The notes: generated from the letters alone by a model not told the origin. A stretch of 64,000 nt of DNA from Patescibacteria group bacterium (GCA_040388985.1 JAZKAU010000002.1:311642-375641); one strand, 5' to 3'; positions 6,145-64,000 are shown, counted from the stretch's first letter. Numbers and translations: made by a program.

Positions 6145-6218
6145 GCTGGCGTAGCTCAGGTAGTTAGAGCATAGGACTCATAAACCTAAGGTCGGAAGTG
6201 CAAGTCTTCCCGCCAGCA
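6145..6218 (+). tRNA. tRNA-Met (CAT), CCA not encoded, atypical T-loop (G at position 55)
   Basis: acceptor GCTGGCG/CGCCAGC, anticodon loop CTCATAA, T-arm GGAAG-TGCAAGT-CTTCC; hand-folded. Confidence 0.65.
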
Positions 6219-6400
6219 CAAAGTGGTTATCGCGAGCTTGGTGCTGGCGGAGAACCCTGCCTGCGCAGGGTTCGTGAAGACTTGCAAGGCGGAGTCATGT
6301 CGCGAAGCGACGGCGAGCCCGGGTCGGGACTGCGAGGACGAATGCGAATGCTTGGAGCATTCGGCCCGCAGATCGTGACCAAGTCTTCCCGCCAGCACCA
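6219..6400 (+). ncRNA. GC-rich structured segment ending in a duplicated tRNA 3' end with CCA (possible tRNA-associated ncRNA or integration scar)
   Basis: 19-nt exact repeat of tRNA-Met 3' end at 6380-6398 followed by CA; 12-bp long-range helix TGGTGCTGGCGG(6239-6250)/CCGCCAGCACCA(6389-6400); internal hairpins. Confidence 0.35.
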
Positions 6401-6446
6401 ACTTGTATTCCCGAACGGAAAACGTTATATTCCATAGGTTAACCAT

Positions 6447-6523
6447 GCGGCTGTAGCTCAGCTGGTTAGAGCGATCGCCTGTCACGCGATAGGTCGCCGG
6501 TTCGAGTCCGGTCAGCCGCGCCA
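6447..6523 (+). tRNA. tRNA-Asp (GTC), CCA encoded
   Basis: acceptor GCGGCTG/CAGCCGC, D-arm GCTCAGCTGGTTAGAGC, anticodon loop CTGTCAC, T-arm GCCGGTTCGAGTCCGGT. Confidence 0.85.
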
Positions 6524-6586: not shown

Positions 6587-7594
6587 TTAGTACAGCGGAG
6601 CTACTACTATTGATGTGGCGGTGTGTGCGCTTGAGCCGCTGTCATCCGTCACCGTAAATGCTGGAGCGTAAGTGCCTGCGCGTCCATATGAATGGGTAAA
6701 TGTTCCGCTTGTGCTTATGGTGGTTGGCTGAGGAGCCATGATATTGGCGCCGCTCGTCGCATATTGCTCATTGCCCCAGAGTACTGAGTAATGCAGGTTG
6801 CCTGAACCGCTATCTGTAAGAACGCGTACCGTCCAGGTTCCTTGCTGTCCAAGGGCTAGCGTTGTGGGTGCGTCTAAGCCGCTAATCGAGAGAGTTTGCT
6901 GGCTACCTGTTCCCACCTGTATCACTACCGTACCGATAGGCATGGTCGCGATCATGCAGCGAGGCTCGCTCCACATACAACCGATATAGCGTTCGAGAGT
7001 AGCGGTGTACGTACCACTCGAAGTGTAGGTGTGTGTCGAATGAACTCGCGGGCAGCCCGCAGGATTATTAAGGGTGCCCATGCACACATTTACCGCGTCC
7101 AGAGCGCCGCTGTTTGAACCGTCTCCGTACTCAATGACATATTGATTGCCACCAGTAAGGCCGGACCCAGAAAAGTCTACCGAAAGAGGTGCAGAGCCTG
7201 AAGTAGGAGTAGCGGAGAGGGGAGTGTCTGTGGGGAAGGAGTTTGGACTACAGTGTCGTTGTATGAAGGCCCGGGTAAGGGGGCCCACATATCCTGTTGC
7301 AGGAACGCCGTTGGCTGACTGGAAGGCTATTACTGCCTTACGGGTTATCGGTCCGAAGTGACCAGTACCCATATTCACTGAATCAAAGAACCCTTGTGTC
7401 ACAAGGTATTGCTGTAAAGAGGTAACCTCGCCTGTTGTAGTCGTGTCGTCCGCGCCATATCGCATATTTACTACAGGAGAAAAGCAAGCCGGGCCTGCTC
7501 CTGTACCGTCAGTTTGGGCAGAAGCGACCGAAACGCTAGAAAAGAGCATGGTAATTACAAGCAATGCGCCGGGGAGTATTTGGTATGGTTTCAT
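6587..7594 (-). CDS. secreted protein with peptidoglycan-binding (PG_binding_1-like) domain and Thr/Ser/Gly-rich beta domains
   Basis: signal peptide MKPYQILPGALLVITMLFSSVSVASA (start trimmed from ORF 6587..7747); LQQYLVTQGFF...GHFGPITRKAVIAFQ motif. Confidence 0.55.
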   Translation of the reverse strand: MKPYQILPGALLVITMLFSSVSVASAQTDGTGAGPACFSPVVNMRYGADDTTTTGEVTSLQQYLVTQGFFDSVNMGTGHFGPITRKAVIAFQSANGVPATGYVGPLTRAFIQRHCSPNSFPTDTPLSATPTSGSAPLSVDFSGSGLTGGNQYVIEYGDGSNSGALDAVNVCMGTLNNPAGCPRVHSTHTYTSSGTYTATLERYIGCMWSEPRCMIATMPIGTVVIQVGTGSQQTLSISGLDAPTTLALGQQGTWTVRVLTDSGSGNLHYSVLWGNEQYATSGANIMAPQPTTISTSGTFTHSYGRAGTYAPAFTVTDDSGSSAHTATSIVVAPLY

Positions 7595-7810
7595 TACTAT
7601 AGTATGACGTGTTGTTGAGCTAACTCTTACCCGCCGTTGCGTGACTGGAGGATCATAGAAAACCAAGAGAGATATCAACACAGCTACGTCTAAGTACGTA
7701 CAGTGGTTCCAACAGCGTCCACGAGGTCGCGCGAACAATAAAGCCATCCTCTGGGCGGCTGTGTGTTTCGGTAAACGGAACTGCTATGCTTAGGCCATCC
7801 ACCAAGATTT

Positions 7811-8794
7811 ATGGAGGCTACCCAGACAATAGAGAGCATCCTCGCTTATTGCGCTAAAGAAGGCCTGGATATAGACGCTTCCACGCTTGCTCCTCTGGAT
7901 AGCGCGGGGTTCATGAGCCGAGTACTAACTGCGCGCTCCGACAAAGGCGAAGTCGTCATAACTATCGTCGCGCAGCCGGTGCCGGAACAGCTCTATCAGG
8001 GTGGTGGTGAGAAGATTCTAAAAGTAGGGAGGTTATTAGCGGGCGTGCCTCAGATTCCCCACATATACCTTACCGGCCCGTTGCCCAATAAGGGGTACTT
8101 CATAGTCCAAGAACGCAAACCAGGCACGCCGCTTGGCAGACGCGTGTATTCAGGAGGAACATTTGTTGATGAGTTCTTAGTCGAAGATCCGCAGAGACTC
8201 GTGGAAGAACTTGAAGAAGTAATACTCCAGATACACGAGCATCGATTCACGAGCTTCGGCTACATAGACCTGCAAGCGAGCGCGATACAGGGATCGCACG
8301 CCTCATGGCCTGAATTCTTACTGGATAATTTCAAGAGAAATATATCTATGCTTGAAGCTGCAGAAGCTTCTCATGGAGTCTCGTACTTTAGTGCGGTCTC
8401 TGCGGATGAGTTCAGAAGAAAGATTGAAGATCTGCTCTCCCTAAACAGGGAATGCTTCGAGATCGAGAGCGCCAGTCTCATCCATGGCGACGTGCTCAAC
8501 TACAGCAACGTGTTGGTAGAGGACGGGAAGGTCACCGGAGTCGTGGATCTCGAATGGGCGCTCTTAGGACATCCCGCATGGGAATTCGTATTCAGAAAAC
8601 AACCTCCGATTGGCCGCTATGTGCCCTTGGCTAAGCAGAAAGGGCTCATTCCGCCAGATATAGACTTCAAGCGTTCAGTCGCACTCCACAACATATTCTG
8701 GTGCGCATGGGGTGCTTCAGTCCACGCGACGAATCCAGAGTTCGGCTCAGCGCTTTTTAAATCCTTCATAACTAGCTTACAATCAGAGGTATGA
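7811..8794 (+). CDS. APH/choline-kinase-like phosphotransferase (protein-kinase fold)
   Basis: catalytic-loop-like LIHGDVLNYSNVLVEDGKVTGVVDLEWA (HGD...N...D motif of aminoglycoside/homoserine kinase II family). Confidence 0.6.
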   Translation: MEATQTIESILAYCAKEGLDIDASTLAPLDSAGFMSRVLTARSDKGEVVITIVAQPVPEQLYQGGGEKILKVGRLLAGVPQIPHIYLTGPLPNKGYFIVQERKPGTPLGRRVYSGGTFVDEFLVEDPQRLVEELEEVILQIHEHRFTSFGYIDLQASAIQGSHASWPEFLLDNFKRNISMLEAAEASHGVSYFSAVSADEFRRKIEDLLSLNRECFEIESASLIHGDVLNYSNVLVEDGKVTGVVDLEWALLGHPAWEFVFRKQPPIGRYVPLAKQKGLIPPDIDFKRSVALHNIFWCAWGASVHATNPEFGSALFKSFITSLQSEV

Positions 8795-9675
8795 CCGAAC
8801 GTCTCCGATCTGAGGCTACTGCACAAGATCAGCCACCATCTGAGGAGGCTGCATTCGAAGCGTTCTTCACGCGCCATGGCGCTGCCCTATATCTAGAGAA
8901 TGGACGTATCCTTCGCTCGGATAGCCCTGAAGCCACGCCGAACTTCAAGGGGTTGCTGCGTCCAGATCTCGACCCTCAGAAGATCGAGGCTGTCCATAAG
9001 GCAGCTGAGAAGCTTCTAGGATCGCTTAACCCCGATACCGATGAGCTCTTCATCGTGTCTAGCGACATCCCTCGAGCTATTGAGACCGCAGACATCTATC
9101 GGCAGATAGCTCACACGCTAGGCTTTACTGTCATACGACACGAAGACAGACAGGTTCGTGACGACTTCGCCCGGGATAGCGCCGAAAGCGAGATACGGAC
9201 CCTCCCGAGCCTCGGTCTCAGGGTGGAGAACCTTCTGAATCTCGCCCTATTTAGCCCGGAGACAACAGAGGAGGACATCAACTGGAGCGGAGTGAGCTCG
9301 GAAGCAAGAGAGAAGTGGAGGAAGGCGCGTGCCCTCATCGACCAGGATAGCAGGGCTAACTGGGGAGAGAATTTCGTGGCCCATGCAGACGAGATCGGAA
9401 AGCTGTACCCCGATATAGCGAGAGCCAAGGCGGCATACGTACAGGGCTTCCAGAATCTCTTGAGGCTCGCCAAGTTTGCGAAGAGGAAGAGCGAGACATT
9501 GGCACCAGGGAGGAAGATCAAGGTGCTCGCATTCGGTCATGAGAACTACATACGCCCGTTTCTCAGTGAGAACTTCGGCGACGCAGGTTTTGACAACGTT
9601 GAGACCATAAAGGTAGAGGTGGGCGAGCCTGTCACTATTGAACGCAGGGGCGTGCGTAAATCGCTCGAGGACTGA
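8791..9675 (+). CDS. histidine phosphatase superfamily protein (PGM-like, branch 1)
   Basis: N-terminal FTRHGAALY (RHG motif) and downstream AFGHEN second His; ATGA overlap with upstream gene. Confidence 0.5.
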   Translation: MTERLRSEATAQDQPPSEEAAFEAFFTRHGAALYLENGRILRSDSPEATPNFKGLLRPDLDPQKIEAVHKAAEKLLGSLNPDTDELFIVSSDIPRAIETADIYRQIAHTLGFTVIRHEDRQVRDDFARDSAESEIRTLPSLGLRVENLLNLALFSPETTEEDINWSGVSSEAREKWRKARALIDQDSRANWGENFVAHADEIGKLYPDIARAKAAYVQGFQNLLRLAKFAKRKSETLAPGRKIKVLAFGHENYIRPFLSENFGDAGFDNVETIKVEVGEPVTIERRGVRKSLED

Positions 9676-9709
9676 TTGCGGCAAGTAGCCTCCTTGGTAC
9701 TATTACCTG

Positions 9710-10198
9710 ATGAGCACGTACCATATCGAGGGAGTTGCTGGTACCGGGAAAAGTACTGTTTCTGAAGACCTAAGGAAAAGGGGATACCGCGTCGTCGATG
9801 CTGATGTGCTGTGCTATTACGGCGATCCGAAGACGGGCGAGCCTGCGGAGAAGTCTCCATTGAACTGGATCTGGCCCAAATCAGAGATCCTTGCGCACAT
9901 AACAGATGCAAACGGTGAACCGCTCTTTATCTGTGGCCGAGCCATGAATCAGGACGACTTCGAGCCTTACTTCAAGAAGACCTTCCTACTGAAGATAGAT
10001 GACGAGACTCTGAAATATCGGCTCGCTACCAGAACCAATAACGACTATGGCAAACATCCGGACGATCTGGCCCTTCAGTTGAAATGGAATGCCGAAGAAC
10101 TCGAGGCTGCTCGACACAAAGGGGCAATAGTCATCGACGCGACGCTCCCGCCTGATGAGGTCGTTACTGAAATACTGCGGCATGTTCAGGAAGGATAG
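9710..10198 (+). CDS. small P-loop NTPase/kinase (adenylate-kinase-like fold)
   Basis: Walker A GVAGTGKST at N-terminus, 162 aa. Confidence 0.55.
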   Translation: MSTYHIEGVAGTGKSTVSEDLRKRGYRVVDADVLCYYGDPKTGEPAEKSPLNWIWPKSEILAHITDANGEPLFICGRAMNQDDFEPYFKKTFLLKIDDETLKYRLATRTNNDYGKHPDDLALQLKWNAEELEAARHKGAIVIDATLPPDEVVTEILRHVQEG

Positions 10199-10218
10199 AC
10201 GTTCAACCCATCTCCGCT

Positions 10219-10248
10219 CGCAAGGCCGCCCTCTGGGCGGCCTTGCGT
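10219..10248 (+). terminator. Rho-independent terminator hairpin (GCAAGGCCGCCCTCTGGGCGGCCTTGC)
   Basis: perfect 12-bp stem just downstream of stop codon. Confidence 0.6.
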
Positions 10249-10290
10249 TTCAGCCTGCAGGACTTCAAGACCGGGGGGTATACTTAAGCT

Positions 10291-11112
10291 ATGAGTGAGA
10301 AGATCGAATCAGCAGGACCCAAGGCTACAAATGTTTCGGAATCTGTGCCTCCGGTTGAAACGCCTGAGGGTGAGCGGAAGCCCGAGCTGATAATCGATTT
10401 CATACGACATGGCACGACCGCGTACGGACCCGCTCTTGAGCAGAAACTCCGGGATATCGGACAAGATCCGGAGATATTCACGCTTATGCCGGCAGTCGAT
10501 GGTTCGATCGAAGACGCGCGTGAGCAGCTAGAAGGCAGGGTAACCCAGGAAGGAGAGGAGGGACTGCGAGAGTCTATACGTGAGCTATGCAAGCGAATCG
10601 ACCCGAAGAAGGAGATAGTCGCGATAGCGCACGGTACCCGGACACGGCATGAACAGTCGACCGATATCATCGCTGACGAACTGCGCAAGAACGGTATCGA
10701 CGTAGTGAGGGTGAAGCCCCATAAGAACCTGGTGGATGTTCAAGGAGGCGGCTGGTACAGCTTCGTGGACTACATCATGAATCACCAGGGCAAGACCGAG
10801 GCAGATCTCGAAGCATTCTGGTGGGAGATGTATCAGGATGAAGAGACACGTTCAGCCATGAATGCAGCCGGTTACGAGAACCTCGCCGATGTTGCTAAGC
10901 GTACCGAATATTTCGTCGAGATACTGAGGCGTTTCGTGAGGAGACATGCTCTTGGCAAGACGCTGCGCGTCATTGCTGTAACGAGCGACGTGAATATCGA
11001 GCAGATCCAGCAGGCCGGGATTCCTATGGAAGAACGTAATCAGATCTGGCCTGCCAATGCAGAGATATATGAGGTGGGATTCGAGGCTTTGGATACTGCT
11101 ACGCAACCATGA
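10291..11112 (+). CDS. histidine phosphatase superfamily protein (PGM-like)
   Basis: DFIRHGTTAYG (RHG) and IVAIAHGTRTRHE (AHG second-His motif); GGGTATACT box 6 nt upstream of ATG. Confidence 0.6.
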   Translation: MSEKIESAGPKATNVSESVPPVETPEGERKPELIIDFIRHGTTAYGPALEQKLRDIGQDPEIFTLMPAVDGSIEDAREQLEGRVTQEGEEGLRESIRELCKRIDPKKEIVAIAHGTRTRHEQSTDIIADELRKNGIDVVRVKPHKNLVDVQGGGWYSFVDYIMNHQGKTEADLEAFWWEMYQDEETRSAMNAAGYENLADVAKRTEYFVEILRRFVRRHALGKTLRVIAVTSDVNIEQIQQAGIPMEERNQIWPANAEIYEVGFEALDTATQP

Positions 11113-11723
11113 ATGAGGGAAAGATAATCGCAATAACCGGAGGTCCGCGCAGCGGCAAGAGCACGCTCGTGAAGCTCCTGTCACAGCGGCTTGGCGCAAC
11201 GCCCTTTCTCGAAGGAGAGGAGAAGGATTTTCCCACGAGAATCATCGACGACATCGCGCAGGGAGATAATCAGCTCGAACTTGTGCTGTATTTCAGGAAC
11301 CTGCTCATCAAGCAGTATGCCGAGGCTCTCAGGATAAAGCAGGAAGGAAAGATAGCTGTCCTTGATTGTTTCTGGCTCACGAATCAGGTGTATATCGACG
11401 CCTGGGTGCCGGATGAGTTTCAAAGGAGTCTTCTGACGGAGCTTACTAATCTAGATATGCAGACATATCCGTGGCCGGACGCCGTCCTGGTACTCACTCA
11501 GTCAGACGAGGGTATCAGAGAATTCATACAGCTTGGCGGAAGGGAATTCGAGAATAATGCTGAATACTTCGAGCGGCAGCTAGCTATCCATAGGCAGCAT
11601 GATCGTTTCTTCAAGGAGATGGAACAGCGACATCCCAACGTCGTCTTCTTTGACCGTACAGGACTCGACTTCATGGGAAAAGAAGAAGACCTTGAACGAG
11701 TTCTGAGAATCTTGCCTCTCTAA
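11109..11723 (+). CDS. deoxynucleoside kinase family protein (dNK/dAK-dGK-like)
   Basis: IAITGGPRSGKST P-loop, LEGEE, LGGREFENN (RGREFE-like LID) architecture matching dNK family; ATGA overlap with upstream gene. Confidence 0.6.
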   Translation: MNEGKIIAITGGPRSGKSTLVKLLSQRLGATPFLEGEEKDFPTRIIDDIAQGDNQLELVLYFRNLLIKQYAEALRIKQEGKIAVLDCFWLTNQVYIDAWVPDEFQRSLLTELTNLDMQTYPWPDAVLVLTQSDEGIREFIQLGGREFENNAEYFERQLAIHRQHDRFFKEMEQRHPNVVFFDRTGLDFMGKEEDLERVLRILPL

Positions 11724-12937: not shown

Positions 12938-13621
12938 ATGTACATCCCCATCAGCCTCCTCAGGAGGCACGTTCGAGAGAGCAATCTCATCGAGAATATC
13001 CGTTATCGTTCCGGCGTCCGGTTGGTCGCAAGCCATCTGAACGCTGCTGTACAGGTCGTGCGACGCACCGCTCGCGGTGAGCTTCTGGATCCTTTGCACA
13101 TCCATTCGCTGCTGTGCCGCGGCACCAGCATGGAAGGTTTCGGCGGAAAGAAACGTACCTGTAATGTATGCGTTGGCAAGTACGATATGCCGAGGTGGAG
13201 GGAAGTCACGCGACTTCTTAACTTGTGGCGCGGTACCGTCCAGTATTACGACAAGCGTATGAAGGATGCCCCGAAAAAGGAACGGGAACGTATTGCTCGA
13301 ATCCTCCACGAACTATTCCTCTGCGTACATCCGTTCGAAGACGGGAACGGTAGGACCTCACGACTCATTCTGAATATGCTGCGGCTTCGCTGGGGACTTG
13401 AGTGGCTGGTCGTTGAGAATCGCCGGAAAGGATTCTATTACCGGCAGATACGGCATACGCAGGACACGATCTTCAGGCCGTGCTACCCGAATGTCTTCCC
13501 GGAAGATGAGCGGCGGCGCTTGCGACGCCGTCTCGAAGCGGAACGAGCCTGGATAGACGCTTACGAGGATTTGCCGACCGGTAGGGTCTCGATGCGAAAT
13601 TCGATCCGCCCTCGTCGGTAA
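12938..13621 (+). CDS. Fic/Doc family protein (class II, intramolecular inhibitory helix)
   Basis: Fic motif HPFEDGNGRTSR; N-terminal SNLIEN matching [ST]xxxE[GN] inhibitory motif. Confidence 0.8.
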   Translation: MYIPISLLRRHVRESNLIENIRYRSGVRLVASHLNAAVQVVRRTARGELLDPLHIHSLLCRGTSMEGFGGKKRTCNVCVGKYDMPRWREVTRLLNLWRGTVQYYDKRMKDAPKKERERIARILHELFLCVHPFEDGNGRTSRLILNMLRLRWGLEWLVVENRRKGFYYRQIRHTQDTIFRPCYPNVFPEDERRRLRRRLEAERAWIDAYEDLPTGRVSMRNSIRPRR

Positions 13622-15585: not shown

Positions 15586-16317
15586 ATGACTCCCGAGAAC
15601 CGGAACAGCAATCAAGAGCAGTGGGACGCGGAATATCGCGCTTCGCAGATGCTCTCGCCATCGAATATTCCCCAGGCGGATGTCGTACGCTTTACGCGCT
15701 GGCTCAAGAAGGAGGGCAAGCGCGCGGGACGTCCGCTCGAGATCGACGAGATGACCGTACTTGATCTTGGAAGCGGTACGGGGCGCAACAGCTTCTACTA
15801 TGCCCAGCAAGGAGCAACTGCCATAGGCTACGAGCTTTCCGAGACGGCGCTCGCTATGGCGCAGAAGTTCGCCCGTCATGGCGAGCTCGCCATCGATTAC
15901 CGGAGACAGGATATCGGCGCGCCGTATCCGCTACCGGACGCATCCGTAGATATCGTGCTTGATATCACGTCTTCCAATTCGCTGAGCGATGCGAAGCGCG
16001 AGGTATATCTCTCGGAAATTTCCCGAGTACTTAAGCCGGGCGGTCATATGCTCGTGCGGGCGCTTGCCAAGGAGGGGGACGCCAACGCGAAGACGCTCAT
16101 CGCGCGCGCTCCTGGCGCTGATCCTGATACCTATGTGCACCCGGATCTGGGCATCATCGAGAAAGTCTTCTCTCGCAAGTCCTTCAGGGAGACTTATGGC
16201 AGGTTCGAGATCCTCGAACTCGAACGAGTGAGCCATTACAACGCCGTTGCGGGCCGGAAGTATAAGAGAAACTACTGGATCGCGTATATGCGCAAGCCTA
16301 GTAAGCCGGTGGATTGA
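15586..16317 (+). CDS. class I SAM-dependent methyltransferase
   Basis: motif I VLDLGSGTGRNS, motif post-I/II (YELSETAL, VDIVLD), LKPGG motif. Confidence 0.8.
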   Translation: MTPENRNSNQEQWDAEYRASQMLSPSNIPQADVVRFTRWLKKEGKRAGRPLEIDEMTVLDLGSGTGRNSFYYAQQGATAIGYELSETALAMAQKFARHGELAIDYRRQDIGAPYPLPDASVDIVLDITSSNSLSDAKREVYLSEISRVLKPGGHMLVRALAKEGDANAKTLIARAPGADPDTYVHPDLGIIEKVFSRKSFRETYGRFEILELERVSHYNAVAGRKYKRNYWIAYMRKPSKPVD

Positions 16318-16494
16318 GATTTGTAAGGAAATCAGATAGGATAGCGGGGTGCGATGTAGAGAGGGTTAGTCGATAGAAGATGGCCTCGCCGATGGAAGAA
16401 CACAATCTCGAAGACTCGAAAGGTTTTTCCATCACGGCTCTCTCGGGCGAAAAGAAATATGCATAAGAATGCAGATTTCTTTTACCCTCGTTCG

Positions 16495-16566
16495 CCGATG
16501 TAGCTCAGGGGTAGAGCAACTCCATGGTAAGGAGTAGGTCGGCAGTTCAATTCTGCCCATCGGCTC
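16495..16566 (+). tRNA. tRNA-Thr (GGT), CCA not encoded
   Basis: acceptor GCCGATG/CATCGGC, anticodon stem ACTCC/GGAGT, loop ATGGTAA, T-arm GGCAGTTCAATTCTGCC. Confidence 0.8.
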
Positions 16567-16667
16567 AAGCATCGATTCCGATGCGGTCGGGCTTCAAGTG
16601 ATCCCATCGGTTCCAGGTTTGTGTTCACAAGCCAGAGCGTTAGTTGGGCGCCGCTAGGCGCCCAGAA

Positions 16668-16740
16668 GCCGAAGTAGCTCAGTTGGTAGAGCATTTCACT
16701 CGTAACGAAAAGGTCGCCGGTTCAATCCCGGCCTTCGGCT
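16668..16740 (+). tRNA. tRNA-Thr (CGT), CCA not encoded
   Basis: acceptor GCCGAAG/CTTCGGC, anticodon loop CTCGTAA, T-arm GCCGGTTCAATCCCGGC. Confidence 0.75.
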
Positions 16741-16875
16741 CAAAGAGTTTGTGCGACATTATTATTCTTGATACATTAGCCTTCTGGCCCGATACGATTT
16801 CACCTCTCGGGCCAGGGACGCTCGGCGTGTTAATCCTGAGCCAAGGCCGTGCTCCGCACGCCGAGCGTCCGCTCT

Positions 16876-23271: not shown

Positions 23272-23940
23272 ATGGATGCGCGCTCTCGTAAGATATCAGA
23301 AACAATGCGAGCTAAGAAGCTCGATAACCTCAAGGAGTGGCGAGACCGCATGAAGGCAGAAGGGAAGATCAAGTCATCCTACGAACCGTTCGAGAAGAAC
23401 GGAGATCTGGCAGAGTTAATCGGCGTAGTGCTTGGAGACGGTCATATTTATAAACACGTTCGGTGCGAATCCTTGCGCATCGTCGGAAGTGGGAATAACC
23501 CCGGCTTTGCGCAAAGATACGCATCTCTTGTCGAGAATATATTCGGTAAGAAGCCACATGTAGCTCTCAGAAGCGCAGAATATGCAATTAATATAACGAT
23601 TTACCAAAGAGAGATCGCCGCGCGTCTCGGTATACCTGCAGGCTCCCGCAAGAATCTTGTATACGAACTTCCGCCGTGGATTCAAGATGAGCCACAACAT
23701 ATCATCTATTTCTTGCGTGGGCTCTATGAAGCAGAAGGTTGCCTCGCGCACCATGAGGGCACCTATACGCATAAGTTCCAATTCTCCAACGTAAACAGAT
23801 CGCTTCTGGATATCGTCTTTAATGAGCTCCAGAAGCTTGGCTTCCATCCGCACCGATCACCTAAGCAAATACAGGTCTCGCGGAAGGAAGAGGTGCAAAA
23901 ATTAGCCAATTTGCTACAATTTCGAAACTACGGTCCGTAG
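23272..23940 (+). CDS. free-standing double-motif LAGLIDADG homing endonuclease-like protein
   Basis: two LAGLIDADG-like motifs ~100 aa apart: LIGVVLGDGHI and FLRGLYEAEGCL; stop codon 4 nt before tRNA-Gln. Confidence 0.65.
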   Translation: MDARSRKISETMRAKKLDNLKEWRDRMKAEGKIKSSYEPFEKNGDLAELIGVVLGDGHIYKHVRCESLRIVGSGNNPGFAQRYASLVENIFGKKPHVALRSAEYAINITIYQREIAARLGIPAGSRKNLVYELPPWIQDEPQHIIYFLRGLYEAEGCLAHHEGTYTHKFQFSNVNRSLLDIVFNELQKLGFHPHRSPKQIQVSRKEEVQKLANLLQFRNYGP

Positions 23941-23944
23941 TATT

Positions 23945-24018
23945 TGCGGGATCATCTAATGGTAGGATCCATGCTTCTGGCGCATGTCATCTAGGTTCGA
24001 GTCCTAGTCCCGCAGCCA
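23945..24018 (+). tRNA. tRNA-Gln (CTG), CCA encoded; integration target
   Basis: acceptor TGCGGGA/TCCCGCA, anticodon stem CATGC/GCATG loop TTCTGGC, T-arm CTAGGTTCGAGTCCTAG, GCCA end. Confidence 0.7.
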
Positions 24019-34014: not shown

Positions 34015-34326
34015 CTATTAATTGATGCCAGACTGGTGGCTGGTGCATAGTCTATGCAGAACTAGTCTTTCGTCGCATGGTCGCGAAGGCCTTAGCAAAG
34101 GGTAGGAACTGCGATAATATGAAGAAGTAGTACAGGGCTATGTATTACCTCAATATGGCCTAAACCGAGCAATTGCCCGGCATGGCCGAATAACCGCGAC
34201 CAGCATAGAAAACCCGTCATCAGGGCGCTGGTCGCGTTACCAGGGGAAACTCTGGTATGTCCTTCGGGACTCCTGGTGGCGGGTTTTGTGCTACCCACCA
34301 GAATTACAAATCGCGACCAGCAACAT

Positions 34327-60279: not shown

Positions 60280-60375
60280 ACGAACTTGCAGAGTCCCTTA
60301 TAATATACCATCTGTAAAGATAGTAGTCAATGATTGCTTAATTTCGCCTCTGTCCAAGCCACCAAAGCTGTTGTA

Positions 60376-63300
60376 TGCTCAAAGCATTCATTAACGATAA
60401 TTTGCCGGTTGTGGGACTCACTAAACCCTTTGACGAGATAGGCAAAGACGATGCCGAGACAGCGGGCGGTAAGGGGGCGTCTCTCGGGGAAATGACGCAG
60501 GCAGGCATTCCAGTGCCTCCGGGGTTCGTGGTGCTGGCAGATGCCTTCGAACGCTTCATCGAAGAGACGGGACTCGTTGTCGAGATAGATGCGATTCTGG
60601 ATACGGTTGACCATGCAGCGATGCACACGGTCGAGAACGCGTCCGAACAGATTCAGGGTCTCATCCTCGCGGCCGCGATGCCGAACGACCTGCGAACAGA
60701 GATCGAGGAATCATTTGCGCGGCTTGATACGGAATTCGTCGCCGTGCGTTCGAGCGCGACCGCTGAGGACGGCGCGACTGCCGCCTGGGCCGGGCAGCTC
60801 GATACTTATTTGAATACGACGCAGTCGACGCTGCTTGAGAATGTGCAGCGATGCTGGGCTTCGCTCTTTACGCCGCGGGCCATCTTCTATCGCTTTGAGA
60901 AGGGACTTGATACGCAGAAGATATCGGTAGCGGTAGTGGTGCAGAAGATGGTCAACAGCGATGCCGCAGGCATCGCGTTCTCCGTTCATCCAGTGACCGA
61001 AGATTACAACCAGATGATCATAGAAGCCGGCTTCGGGCTCGGCGAGGCGGTCGTATCCGGCCAGATAACTCCCGATAGCTATGTTGTAACCAAGGACAAG
61101 CGAGAAATAATCGAGAAGAGCATCAGCGAGCAAGCGCAGGGACTCTTCCGAAAGTCCGGCGGGGGGAACGAGTGGCGCGATATCCCTCAGAGTGAAGGCA
61201 GCAAGCAAGTGCTTTCGGACGAGCAGATATTAGCGCTTGGCGAGACCCTCATAGGCATCGAACGGCATTATGACTTCCCGGTGGATACCGAGTGGGCGGT
61301 GGAAGGGAAGGAAGTGTATATCGTCCAAAGCCGTCCGATCACGACGCTCTCAACGCAAGAAAGAGAACTGGACACGGATAGTGATGTGGTCCAGCTAATG
61401 AATAGGAGCGGATCTTCGGTTACTCACGTCGTCGACAACTATACCCTCACGTTTGAAAGTGGTGGCATAGGTACTCTCATGAGCGAGATCATCTGCGCAG
61501 GATACCTGCCCGCTGGCTCACTCATTATTTATAGGAACGGTACCTACGAGCAGTACTACTCGAACGCCGGACTCGAGGAAATGGGTCCTAAGGGAATCGA
61601 GTTCTTCAGCATGGAAGGATACGCAGAACAGCTCGTGAAGGACTTGAAGGCTCTAATTGCTTCCGCTACAGATGCGAAGAAAGATACTTTTCAACGCTCG
61701 GATATAGAGAATCTTTTTAAGACATTCACCGAGATTCATAGGAAATATAACGCTTTTGACTTTGGGTACACTGACGGCGCGTATTCGGTGATGGATAGTA
61801 ACGATGTGGTTCGTAAGAACGTGGAGCGCGTTGAAGAAGAGAAGAATGCTATCCGCGAAGAATACAACATACTCTTCTTCGACGAGAACGGCGCGCTTGC
61901 AATCCTCTTGAAGAATCTCTCAGAACGATTCTCCGTACCGGTCTCGAATCTACAATGGTATATAGCTTCAGAATTGTTTGACCTACTCACGAGCAAGAAA
62001 GTAGCCGAGGATGTATTGGAAGAAAGAAAGCGCGCATATGTCTTCAGGAAGGCGGGGGAATCCGAAGAATATACGTTCTTGTACGGGAAAGATGCAATTA
62101 ATTTCAGTTCCAAGTTCGGTCAGATAAAAGTCGTGGAGGATAAAAGCCAGGTTATCCGGGGAGTAGTAGCTAGCGGAGGCAACATTGTACGCGGGGTAGT
62201 CTTCAATCTCACTACTGACTACTCGAACGTCGATCAGTTGCGAGCGCAGATGGCTCTGATGAAGCAGGGAGAGATACTCGTGGCCCCGACTACCGCACCG
62301 GAACATATGGATGCGATTCGGAAGTCAGCGGCTATGGTCGTGGACGTAGGAGGCATGCTATCGCATACGGCGATCGTGGGCCGTGAACTGGGCATACCGA
62401 GTATCGTAGGAACACAGTACGGTAGCAAGGTGTTTAAGACGGGAGACGAGGTTGAGGTCGATGCAGATACGGGCACGGTCCGGCTGATAGGCCGCTCCAC
62501 CAAGGAAGTCACGCTCGTGAAGTTCTTCTCAAGGGATCACTCGCTTTTCTATACCTATGTCTGGCGCACGAGCAATACGCAGAGGGCAAAGAAGTGGGTC
62601 GGATTAAATATTGAAGAAGCCCTCTACGCACATCCGGCGGGAGGGGACGTGGTGGAAGTCTGGTATTCGGATAATGAACTCAAGCGGTATGACGCTGCTA
62701 TCGCGGCAAAGATACTGAGTGATACAGAGTGGTTCCAAGCGCTCGCAGCGTATTTTGAGACTGAGTGGCAGGGCATGTTGAGACTCATACAGAAGAAGGA
62801 AGTGCTTACACGCGAAGAGCTTTCGGAATTCTATGACCACTGGGTGAACTGGTGGGATCCGATGGCGTTTACGATGCAGATTCCGGAGATCGAAGGTGTT
62901 CCTCAAGATATCAAAGACCAGGCATTCAACCTGCGAGCAAGTACGCAGGAATACTCAGATAGCGGAGACGAGTTATTCCACGCGTATATGCAGCAGAATC
63001 ACCCGGAACTCTCGAAGTATTTCTCCGTAGTGACGCCAGAGGAGGTATTCAGCGATACCTTTCCTTCGCATGACGTTCTCGAGCAGCGTCTAGGGGGCTG
63101 GTATATGACCAGCAGTGATTTCGGTCTTATAGACGACCTGCCAAGAGCCCTCAAGGAACGGAACTTCGTACTTGAAAAGGTAGATACGACCGCCATTAAG
63201 GAACTTACCGGACAAGTCGCCTATAAAGGAATCGCGCGGGGCAGGGTGCGGGTGCTCAGTCGTCGCGATCAGGTGTCCGAAGTACAGGAAGGGGAAATTC

Positions 63301-64000
63301 TCGTCGCCACGATGACAACTCCGGATTTCTTCCCAGCACTCCAGAAGGCAGCAGCGTTCATTACCGATGAAGGAGGTATCACGTGCCACGCCGCTATCGT
63401 CGCCCGCGAGATGAAGAAGCCGTGCATCATCGGTACGAAGATCGCGACACAAGTATTGCAGGATGGAGATGAGGTGGAAGTCGATGCAGATACTGGCGTC
63501 GTTCGAATCCTTCAAAAGGAAGACCATCAGCCATACGTGTTCTTTTACGAGTCCCAAGGATACGCCTTCATTCTCGAAGACATGATCATGTCGTCCTATG
63601 TTTCTTGGCCCATGATAGTGCTTGGGGTCGGAACACGGGTACGCAAGTACGTTCCGGCCGGTACGCCCGAAGAGTTGAAGGTGCAGGGACTTACTCACTC
63701 GGCCGAAGATCTCGAGACGAGACTGGCTAGCATTCAGGAGATACTTGGCGAGCTTCGCAGCATCTCTCTTACAGTTGACATGTCAAAGGAAGAATGTCTG
63801 GAGGTATTTGCGAAGATGGAAGAGATTCTTGAACTCTATTCATATTTCGATACCGCGTACTGCGAAGGGCTATACTCGGATGACCTGCAAGATCCTCGCG
63901 CGTTAGTGGTAGAGCAGTCGAAGAACGTGATACGAGACGACCTCGATGGAACATTCTTCAGGGAGAATGGCGTCTTGGATATGTTGCTTACTGCCGTCGG
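60376..64000 (+). CDS. PEP synthase/pyruvate,water dikinase-like multidomain protein (ATP-grasp PEP/pyruvate-binding N-domain + two PEP-utilising swivel His domains), 3' truncated by window end
   Basis: GGKGASLGEM, VAVRSSATAEDG, DTEWAVEGKEVYIVQSRPITT; swivel motifs GGMLSHTAIVGRELGIPSIVGT (~62340) and GGITCHAAIVAREMKKPCIIGT (~63370); not in ORF track because no stop in window. Confidence 0.8.

Follow-up and report, generated by a model that had tools for sequence, protein, structure and literature searches.

The 64,000-nucleotide stretch of DNA analysed here (the window; GCA_040388985.1 JAZKAU010000002.1:311642-375641) belongs to a metagenome-assembled genome (MAG) deposited as 'Patescibacteria group bacterium', an uncultured member of the candidate phyla radiation (CPR), and it carries a run of five genes, g1 to g5, whose products are annotated in the deposit as hypothetical proteins (Table 1). 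The cluster consists of two separately conserved two-gene modules lying side by side, g1 with g2 and g4 with g5, each of which joins a kinase gene to a gene for a very divergent protein of the histidine phosphatase fold, together with an extra kinase gene, g3. An initial annotation of the sequence had described five genes in this order with two ATGA overlaps between neighbours, and all of this is present, on the plus strand: the same five genes are called by an independent gene caller on the source contig (about 525 kb; locus tags V4480_02885 and V4480_02895), the g1 stop overlaps the g2 start at 8791-8794, and the g4 stop overlaps the g5 start at 11109-11112. Gene g3 begins 35 bp past g2.

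Table 1. Features of the five-gene cluster, with positions counted from the first nucleotide of the window.
Feature	Position	Strand	Description
g1	7811-8794	+	327 aa; APH/choline-kinase-fold phosphotransferase; upstream partner of g2
g2	8791-9675	+	294 aa; divergent histidine-phosphatase-fold protein; R28-H29, R95, H250-E251
g3	9710-10198	+	162 aa; small P-loop kinase-like protein
hairpin	10219-10247	+	perfect 13-bp G+C-rich stem, 3-nt loop, then TTTC
g4	10291-11112	+	273 aa; divergent histidine-phosphatase-fold protein; R39-H40-G41, R117/R119, S232-D233
g5	11109-11723	+	204 aa; dNK-like P-loop kinase; conserved downstream partner of g4

Both g2 and g4 fall below the Pfam cut-off of 21.7 bits for His_Phos_1 (18.2 and 17.5 bits, respectively), neither matches a phosphatase or mutase family, or any equivalog, in NCBIfam, and searches of the PDB by sequence, with the single proteins and with family profiles, returned nothing meaningful, such that structure prediction was needed. 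Homologues were collected (11 for g2 and 19 for g4) and the alignments used for prediction with AlphaFold2 (AF2), giving models with a mean predicted local distance difference test score of 83 for g2 and 88 for g4, which were compared by Foldseek with the PDB and with viral models. The 50 best listed PDB matches of each model are all histidine phosphatases or mutases, with probabilities of 0.99-1.0. The g4 model matches BPGM/dPGM, PspA, Rv2419c and CobC (E values 2e-6 to 4e-5), and the g2 model matches branch-2 acid phosphatases (Francisella, Legionella and prostatic), followed by branch-1 proteins of the dPGM/PhoE/CobC type (E values 4e-8 to 1e-4, probability 1.0); the comparison with viral models likewise returns histidine phosphatases. 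Large helical insertions in both proteins keep the template modelling scores (TM-scores) at a modest 0.3-0.6. The predicted structures confirm g2 and g4 as very divergent members of the histidine phosphatase superfamily. The family calls of the initial annotation therefore hold at the level of fold or superfamily only, with g2 and g4 under the Pfam cut-offs and their phosphatase fold borne out by AF2 and Foldseek; with neither an NCBIfam equivalog nor a PDB relative by sequence, the two are not ordinary phosphoglycerate mutase or CobC orthologues, the outcome that it had named as fatal to its proposal.

The residues of the active site are strongly conserved. In an alignment of 12 g2 homologues the R and H of the R28-H29-G30 motif are invariant, as are R95 and H250, and in the g4 alignment the RHG motif, R117/R119 and D233 are invariant. 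The branch-2 histidine acid phosphatases, which head the structural matches of g2 (TM-scores 0.31-0.41, identity 10-17%), resemble it in their RHG motif, in the acidic residue after the second histidine (HD there, HE or HD here) and in a large helical insertion. They differ in that the RHGxRxP motif is not kept here, g2 having RHGAALY and g4 RHGTTAY, and in that no obvious signal peptide is seen on reading the g2 and g4 sequences; the N-termini of both are polar and predicted to be disordered, and the proteins look cytoplasmic.

Comparison of g2 with g4 by BLASTP gives nothing significant, whereas their family profiles align over 217 columns (hhalign probability 96%, E 2.4e-9), and the invariant columns of the joint alignment are the RH pair, a tyrosine five residues on, and the second arginine. 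On this profile-level similarity g2 and g4 are deep paralogues and not the products of a recent duplication. The 'duplicated phosphatase-kinase pair' of the initial annotation was thus overstated, and the kinases g3 and g5 have no significant similarity to one another.

An exhaustive profile search with the joint alignment recovers a family of 380 clusters (representatives at 50% identity) at E ≤ 1e-3, with 212 of them at 1e-10 and 74 at 1e-30. When the best 150 of the 380 clusters are aligned to the profile and sequences covering each position are counted, RH is found in 136 of 136, the second arginine (R95 of g2) in 139 of 141, and the second histidine in 117 of 120, where it is followed by glutamate in 99 and by aspartate in 11 (one or the other in 110). 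The family signature is then RH…R…H[E/D], and the g4 subfamily is the sole 'SD' cluster among those examined. Branch 2 of the superfamily is characterised by an 'RHG…HD' signature in which the acidic residue donates the proton, and the resemblance of the family signature to it argues for catalysis over a dead scaffold. We infer that the phosphatase of this family is a working hydrolase, in which the nucleophilic histidine, the two arginines and the acidic residue after the second histidine are retained. Two long family proteins, P0294 and P0277, are degenerate copies without RHG; no fusion of kinase with phosphatase was found among the longest of the best 150 members, whose extra regions have no Pfam match. 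The family is largely associated with Patescibacteria, is annotated by neither Pfam nor NCBIfam, and appears to be undescribed. A comparison with PADLOC models gave only short, weak matches (P-loop segments of g3 and g5, and Csm3 at E 0.021 for g2), and assignment to a known defence system is unsupported.

The strongest regularity lies in what stands beside these genes. Using g2-like and g4-like queries we assembled 38 distinct loci (duplicates collapsed) from the family of about 380 clusters, and in 32 of these a kinase gene is directly adjacent on the same strand. The neighbour is a dikinase, recognised by its PPDK_N or PEP-utilizers domains, in 24 loci, a kinase resembling the deoxynucleoside kinases (dNK) in five, an APH-like kinase in two and another P-loop kinase in one; no adjacent kinase was detected in the other six, among which both flanks are readable only in L038. 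The spacing between kinase and phosphatase genes is mostly -3 to +35 bp. This adjacency is far beyond chance, and the pairing has outlasted several exchanges of the kinase for one of an unrelated fold. We are highly confident of this part of the account, that is, of the fold of g2 and g4, the RH…R…H[E/D] signature of their family, the adjacency of kinase genes and the repeated replacement of the partner.

As for the cluster itself, the initial annotation had looked to co-localisation in other genomes, and this is found for the pairs (g4 with g5 in at least five distinct loci, g1 with g2 in two), whereas the cluster of five is not conserved as a whole. It could be supposed that there is no functional link and that unrelated housekeeping kinases and phosphatases have come together by accident in a small genome densely packed with genes, since the whole five-gene arrangement is seen only in this organism, g3 has no conserved association, and relatives of g5 without g4 exist. 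However, the recurrence of an adjacent kinase amid differing surroundings and with differing kinase folds, together with the conservation of the gene overlaps, makes this explanation scarcely credible. Chance juxtaposition is contradicted for the pairs, and it survives only for the proximity of the two modules and for g3.

The g4-g5 pair offers the clearest example of conservation. In addition to the window it is found in loci L008, L010, L012 and L045, with unrelated surroundings and with the two genes overlapping or spaced by -3 to +9 bp. It lies downstream of a methyltransferase gene in L008 and is flanked by smc and the RNase R gene (rnr) in a Saccharibacteria MAG (L010, L011), and ten g4 homologues and ten g5 homologues must share contigs, as the longest contigs reported for them agree in length. 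The small P-loop kinase g5 belongs to the adenylate-kinase-like class, scoring 43.2 bits against Pfam AAA_28 (cut-off 27) and falling just under the cut-off for Pfam dNK (26.9 bits against 27.0), of which it covers positions 1-195 of the 203-position profile. Its close relatives number about 60, those with named sources coming from Patescibacteria, and its distant relatives are annotated as deoxynucleoside kinases of Chloroflexi, with which the P-loop (G16-K17-S18-T19), the glutamate after the P-loop (E35) and the lid residues R145 and E148 are invariant. In its P-loop, catalytic glutamate and lid Arg-x-x-Glu it is like the bacterial members of the dNK/dCK/dGK family.

A pair of this composition could also act in the healing of RNA or DNA ends as a polynucleotide kinase-phosphatase split over two genes, with g4 as the 3'-phosphatase and g5 as the 5'-kinase. 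Such a reading follows the kinase-plus-phosphatase logic of T4 Pnkp, and it accords with the class of small P-loop kinase to which g5 belongs and with the one genome in which the pair sits between smc and RNase R. Yet the end-healing phosphatases known to us, including that of T4 Pnkp, are haloacid dehalogenase (HAD) enzymes or metallophosphoesterases and not histidine phosphatases; no ligase, Hen1, RtcB or other nucleic-acid repair partner is conserved near the g4-g5 loci examined, and g5 has its nearest relatives among the nucleoside kinases. We regard end healing as improbable.

The kinase conserved with g2 is of a different kind. Gene g1 encodes a genuine APH/choline-kinase-fold phosphotransferase, with a Pfam APH match of 34.9 bits (E 1.8e-8, cut-off 23.2) and a catalytic loop that is intact when aligned to MphH (H225-G-D227 and N233, plus the metal-binding D245). 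Its nearest PDB relatives by sequence are the macrolide 2'-phosphotransferase MphH and a hygromycin kinase, the similarity being confined to that catalytic-loop region, and it scores only 11-13 bits against the named antibiotic-kinase equivalogs (APH(3'), APH(4), Mph and Cph), which have cut-offs of 205-725. The g1-g2 pairing recurs once, in L048, a 1.1-kb contig carrying the closest relative of g2 (56% identity), where the open reading frame (ORF) just upstream matches the g1 C-terminus. With this sole exception, the approximately 36 other g2-family loci contain no homologue of g1, g3, g4 or g5.

The initial annotation had instead paired g2 with g3, and this is not upheld. No g3 homologue was found in any other fetched locus, and in L048 none directly follows the g2 homologue in the 98 bp of sequence that can be read. 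The gene neighbourhoods show that g3 is not the conserved partner of g2; this role falls to g1, the kinase gene upstream, and among relatives mostly to a dikinase. The g3 product matches Pfam AAA_18 (E 6.9e-9, above the cut-off) and Thymidylate_kin (27.7 bits, cut-off 27), but it resembles CoaE or shikimate kinase over the N-terminal P-loop only, the CoaE-type match being residues 7-34, and its dTMP-kinase match is restricted to residues 89-155; it misses both dephospho-CoA kinase TIGR00152 (24.7 bits against 65.55) and dTMP kinase TIGR00041 (26.9 against 83.25). In L049, where the g2 homologue has 42% identity, the preceding gene encodes yet another kinase type, a 176-aa P-loop protein, whose first 36 or so residues are weakly like 2-phosphoglycerate kinase at a score far below the cut-off, and which is a lead only. 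We considered this protein as a relative of g3 and rejected it, finding no relationship on comparison.

Most g2 homologues adjoin, and often lie between, genes for the ATP-grasp (PPDK_N) and swivel-histidine (PEP-utilizers) parts of a dikinase. These partners occur as separate genes or as fusion proteins of 684-1152 aa, carry the swivel domain C-terminally and lack a phosphoenolpyruvate (PEP)/pyruvate barrel. In having PPDK_N at the N-terminus, PEP-utilizers at the C-terminus and no such barrel, they are like rifampin phosphotransferase (RPH) and PigC, but they fall below the equivalog cut-offs for RPH, PigC and PEP synthase, are often split into at least two genes with the phosphatase gene between them, and are absent from the five-gene cluster. 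Distant members of the family are also linked to dikinases, both a g4-like gene of 34% identity in L015 and P0228 in L051, and the dikinase therefore looks like the ancestral partner.

Several further dikinase loci may be recorded here. In one CPR genome (L051, 2514-5912) a fused dikinase and the phosphatase lie between infA and rpsM-rpsK-rpsD-rpoA-rplQ, a core housekeeping neighbourhood. In metagenomic loci L024, L029, L031, L039 and L040, a lone phosphatase gene stands among multiple 'middle domain + swivel' and PPDK_N genes, and several substrate modules may share one ATP-grasp unit in these arrays. The window itself contains, at 60342-64000 on the plus strand and running off its end, an ORF of more than 1200 codons with one PPDK_N and two PEP-utilizers domains, a middle domain preceding each of the latter; it belongs to the rifampin-phosphotransferase/PigC-like dikinase family and is 64% identical to the PPDK_N protein of L004.

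The variety of partners bears on what the phosphatase acts upon. Dikinases pass phosphate through a phospho-histidine, whereas APH-type and P-loop kinases transfer it directly, in-line. Since the pairing survives a swap between these chemistries, the link is probably a shared small-molecule substrate and not a direct phosphorelay between kinase and phosphatase or the reset of a phospho-enzyme. Both of these would have the phosphatase-fold protein act on its kinase, either by a SixA-like removal of phosphate from the swivel phosphohistidine of the dikinase or as a phospho-acceptor in a His-to-His relay, and it has some appeal in that most family members stand beside, or even between, the ATP-grasp and swivel-histidine genes of split dikinases, and in that SixA, of the same superfamily, dephosphorylates phospho-histidine proteins. 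The persistence of the pairing with APH-type and P-loop kinases, which form no phospho-enzyme intermediate and to which both partners in the window, g1 and g5, belong, leaves it with little to recommend it, and we give it a low probability.

We tentatively favour, with somewhat less than even confidence in the explanation as a whole, two modules in each of which the paired enzymes would process one shared metabolite in sequence. The phosphatase would first remove a phosphate from a position other than the target of the kinase, and the kinase would then add the useful phosphate at its own position. For g4-g5 the likely substrates would be scavenged nucleosides or nucleotides, with, for example, a 3'- or 2'-nucleoside monophosphate (NMP) or deoxynucleoside monophosphate (dNMP) converted to the nucleoside and then to the 5'-NMP, a route that would suit a salvage-dependent organism. 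The substrate of g1-g2 would be a small molecule like those on which enzymes of the APH or rifampin-phosphotransferase type act. T4 Pnkp resembles this proposed mechanism in applying a 3'-phosphatase and then a 5'-kinase to one substrate, which here would occur at the level of the mononucleotide.

The main rival to such sequential action is an antagonistic pair, in which the phosphatase reverses its partner kinase at the same position, either to control how much of a phosphorylated metabolite or signal is present, in the manner of PFK-2/FBPase-2 with fructose-2,6-bisphosphate or of deoxynucleoside kinases and 5'-nucleotidases with dNTP pools, or to inactivate a toxic or xenobiotic compound reversibly. 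The domain logic of a P-loop kinase with a histidine phosphatase is that of PFK-2/FBPase-2, the translational coupling implied by the ATGA overlaps suggests a fixed stoichiometry, and APH and rifampin-phosphotransferase-like kinases are known for the modification of xenobiotics. On the other hand, there are no fused forms among the longest family members and no 6PF2K match, no conserved regulator or sensor stands beside the pairs in the loci examined, and opposing enzymes without regulation would make a futile cycle. We consider an antagonistic pair unlikely.

The initial annotation had drawn the comparison with PFK-2/FBPase-2 explicitly, and it stands only as an analogy of domain pairs: a P-loop kinase and a histidine-phosphatase-fold enzyme form one unit, and the ATGA overlaps mimic fusion. 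Neither g3 nor g5 has a 6PF2K match. Here, moreover, the genes are separate, the kinases are dNK-like, APH or dikinase, the phosphatases form a separate branch (H[E/D] or SD), the system is bacterial (Patescibacteria), and nothing points to sugar-bisphosphates. The pairing of a kinase with a nucleotide phosphatase is a known control of nucleotide pools, but the nucleotidases known from the dNK/5'-nucleotidase substrate cycles are HAD enzymes, in contrast to the histidine-phosphatase fold here. CobU and CobC, which act in cobamide nucleotide-loop assembly, likewise bring a P-loop kinase and a histidine phosphatase into one bacterial pathway, and CobC is among the fold matches; there are, however, no equivalog matches in the cluster (CobU in Pfam at E 0.038, below the cut-off) and no cob genes nearby.

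Several observations weigh against the sequential explanation we favour, or at least restrain it. The second catalytic histidine of g4 is replaced by serine (Ser232, in TSD) in 19 of 20 homologues, histidine occurring only in the distant P0032, and g4 could be an enzyme of reduced activity or else a binding protein. Unlike the dNK/dCK/dGK kinases, g5 and its close relatives lack the DRS/ERS arginine, having …VLDCFW… there (the register is uncertain by a few residues, with no arginine nearby), and nucleosides are therefore not assured as its substrate. Those relatives of g5 that occur without g4 (L046, L047) include close ones, such that the kinase does not need the phosphatase. All five proteins miss every equivalog model, and the sequence names no substrate; some dikinase loci hold several substrate-domain and swivel genes with one phosphatase, a poor fit to one substrate per pair. 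Finally, sequential and opposing action cannot be told apart by sequence.

The two modules are probably separate transcription units, divided by the hairpin that lies in the 92-nt spacer between g3 and g4. The centroid structure of the folded spacer consists of this hairpin alone (z-score -2.3). A terminator after g3 was part of the initial annotation, and although the perfect 13-bp stem is present, a scan for consensus terminators did not call it, because its T-run is short. The hairpin is a probable terminator or processing site between g1-g2-g3 and g4-g5, and as such likely marks the border of the two units. We note that a 12-mer, CCTCTGGGCGGC, occurs twice on the plus strand, at 7748-7759 (about 50 bp before the g1 start) and at 10230-10241 (within the hairpin), each copy with GTTTC within about 10 nt downstream; this is only marginally unusual, as 5 of 100 shuffles also gave two matches. 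Upstream of the cluster, a minus-strand ORF at 6587-7747 encodes a 386-aa peptidoglycan (PG)-binding/PKD protein whose true start is probably about 50 codons later, at MKPYQILPGALLV…, which resembles a signal peptide; this later start would make a divergent intergenic region of about 215 bp upstream of g1.

More widely, the cluster is flanked by tRNA-Met and tRNA-Asp genes (6145-6523) on one side and by two tRNA-Thr genes (16494-16741) on the other, and its neighbours encode the secreted PG-binding/PKD protein, a DUF805 membrane protein, a Fic protein, a major facilitator superfamily (MFS) transporter, TspO and a methyltransferase. The Fic-domain gene (12938-13621, plus strand) lies 1.2 kb past the cluster. 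An ORF in L021 (3803-4864) with a short Fic-like stretch (42% identity over 64 aa) is found two genes from the g2 homologue there, and a relative of this ORF in L026 is four genes from the g2 homologue of that locus; any association between Fic proteins and the g2 family may be weak or due to chance. Genes for class I S-adenosylmethionine (SAM) methyltransferases occur near family loci in the window (15586-16317), L008 (6199-6954), L049 (1906-2592) and L003 (16215-16610). We rejected these as orthologues, since their similarity is found only in the SAM-binding region, and their recurrence is probably chance. Elsewhere in the window, a LOOT RNA (Rfam RF03000) at 34157-34271 on the plus strand scores 69.5 bits against a gathering threshold of 46.4 with the whole model covered, and the G+C content drops from about 0.55-0.57 to 0.43-0.49 across approximately 24000-46000. 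The drop begins directly after a tRNA-Gln gene (23945-24018) and an ORF with a LAGLIDADG domain (23272-23940), and this segment may be integrated or foreign.

The initial annotation had known of no described bacterial pathway with this arrangement, and we found none in the literature searched. In full-text searching, no account emerged of dikinases or dNK-like kinases coupled to a histidine phosphatase family in Patescibacteria, and in the one match concerning HapC and PigC histidine phosphatases occur only in the reference list. What is known are the folds and the logic of kinase plus phosphatase; the family, its signature and the rule of an interchangeable kinase appear to be undescribed. 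In its broadest form, the proposal would make the g2/g4 family an obligate kinase partner whose kinase is exchangeable among at least four unrelated families, with the pair serving as a general phosphate-repositioning unit for scavenged metabolites, or as a kinase/phosphatase switch, in ultra-small symbiotic bacteria, a generalisation that we think possible if, on balance, somewhat doubtful.

Patescibacteria have very reduced genomes, are thought to scavenge from hosts, and contain many genes without an assigned role. For these organisms, the analysis assigns a fold to some 380 sequence clusters that Pfam and NCBIfam leave unannotated, and provides a genomic rule for the family, that a kinase of whatever type is nearly always adjacent. 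That rule gives a testable handle on the many 'PEP synthase-like' dikinases in these genomes, which have no PEP/pyruvate domain and are therefore probably not PEP synthases, and on a clade of dNK-like kinases with a possibly central part in nucleotide salvage. Should the pairs indeed be phosphate-repositioning or switch modules, bacteria would have in them a new counterpart of PFK-2/FBPase-2 and of the end-healing kinase-phosphatases.

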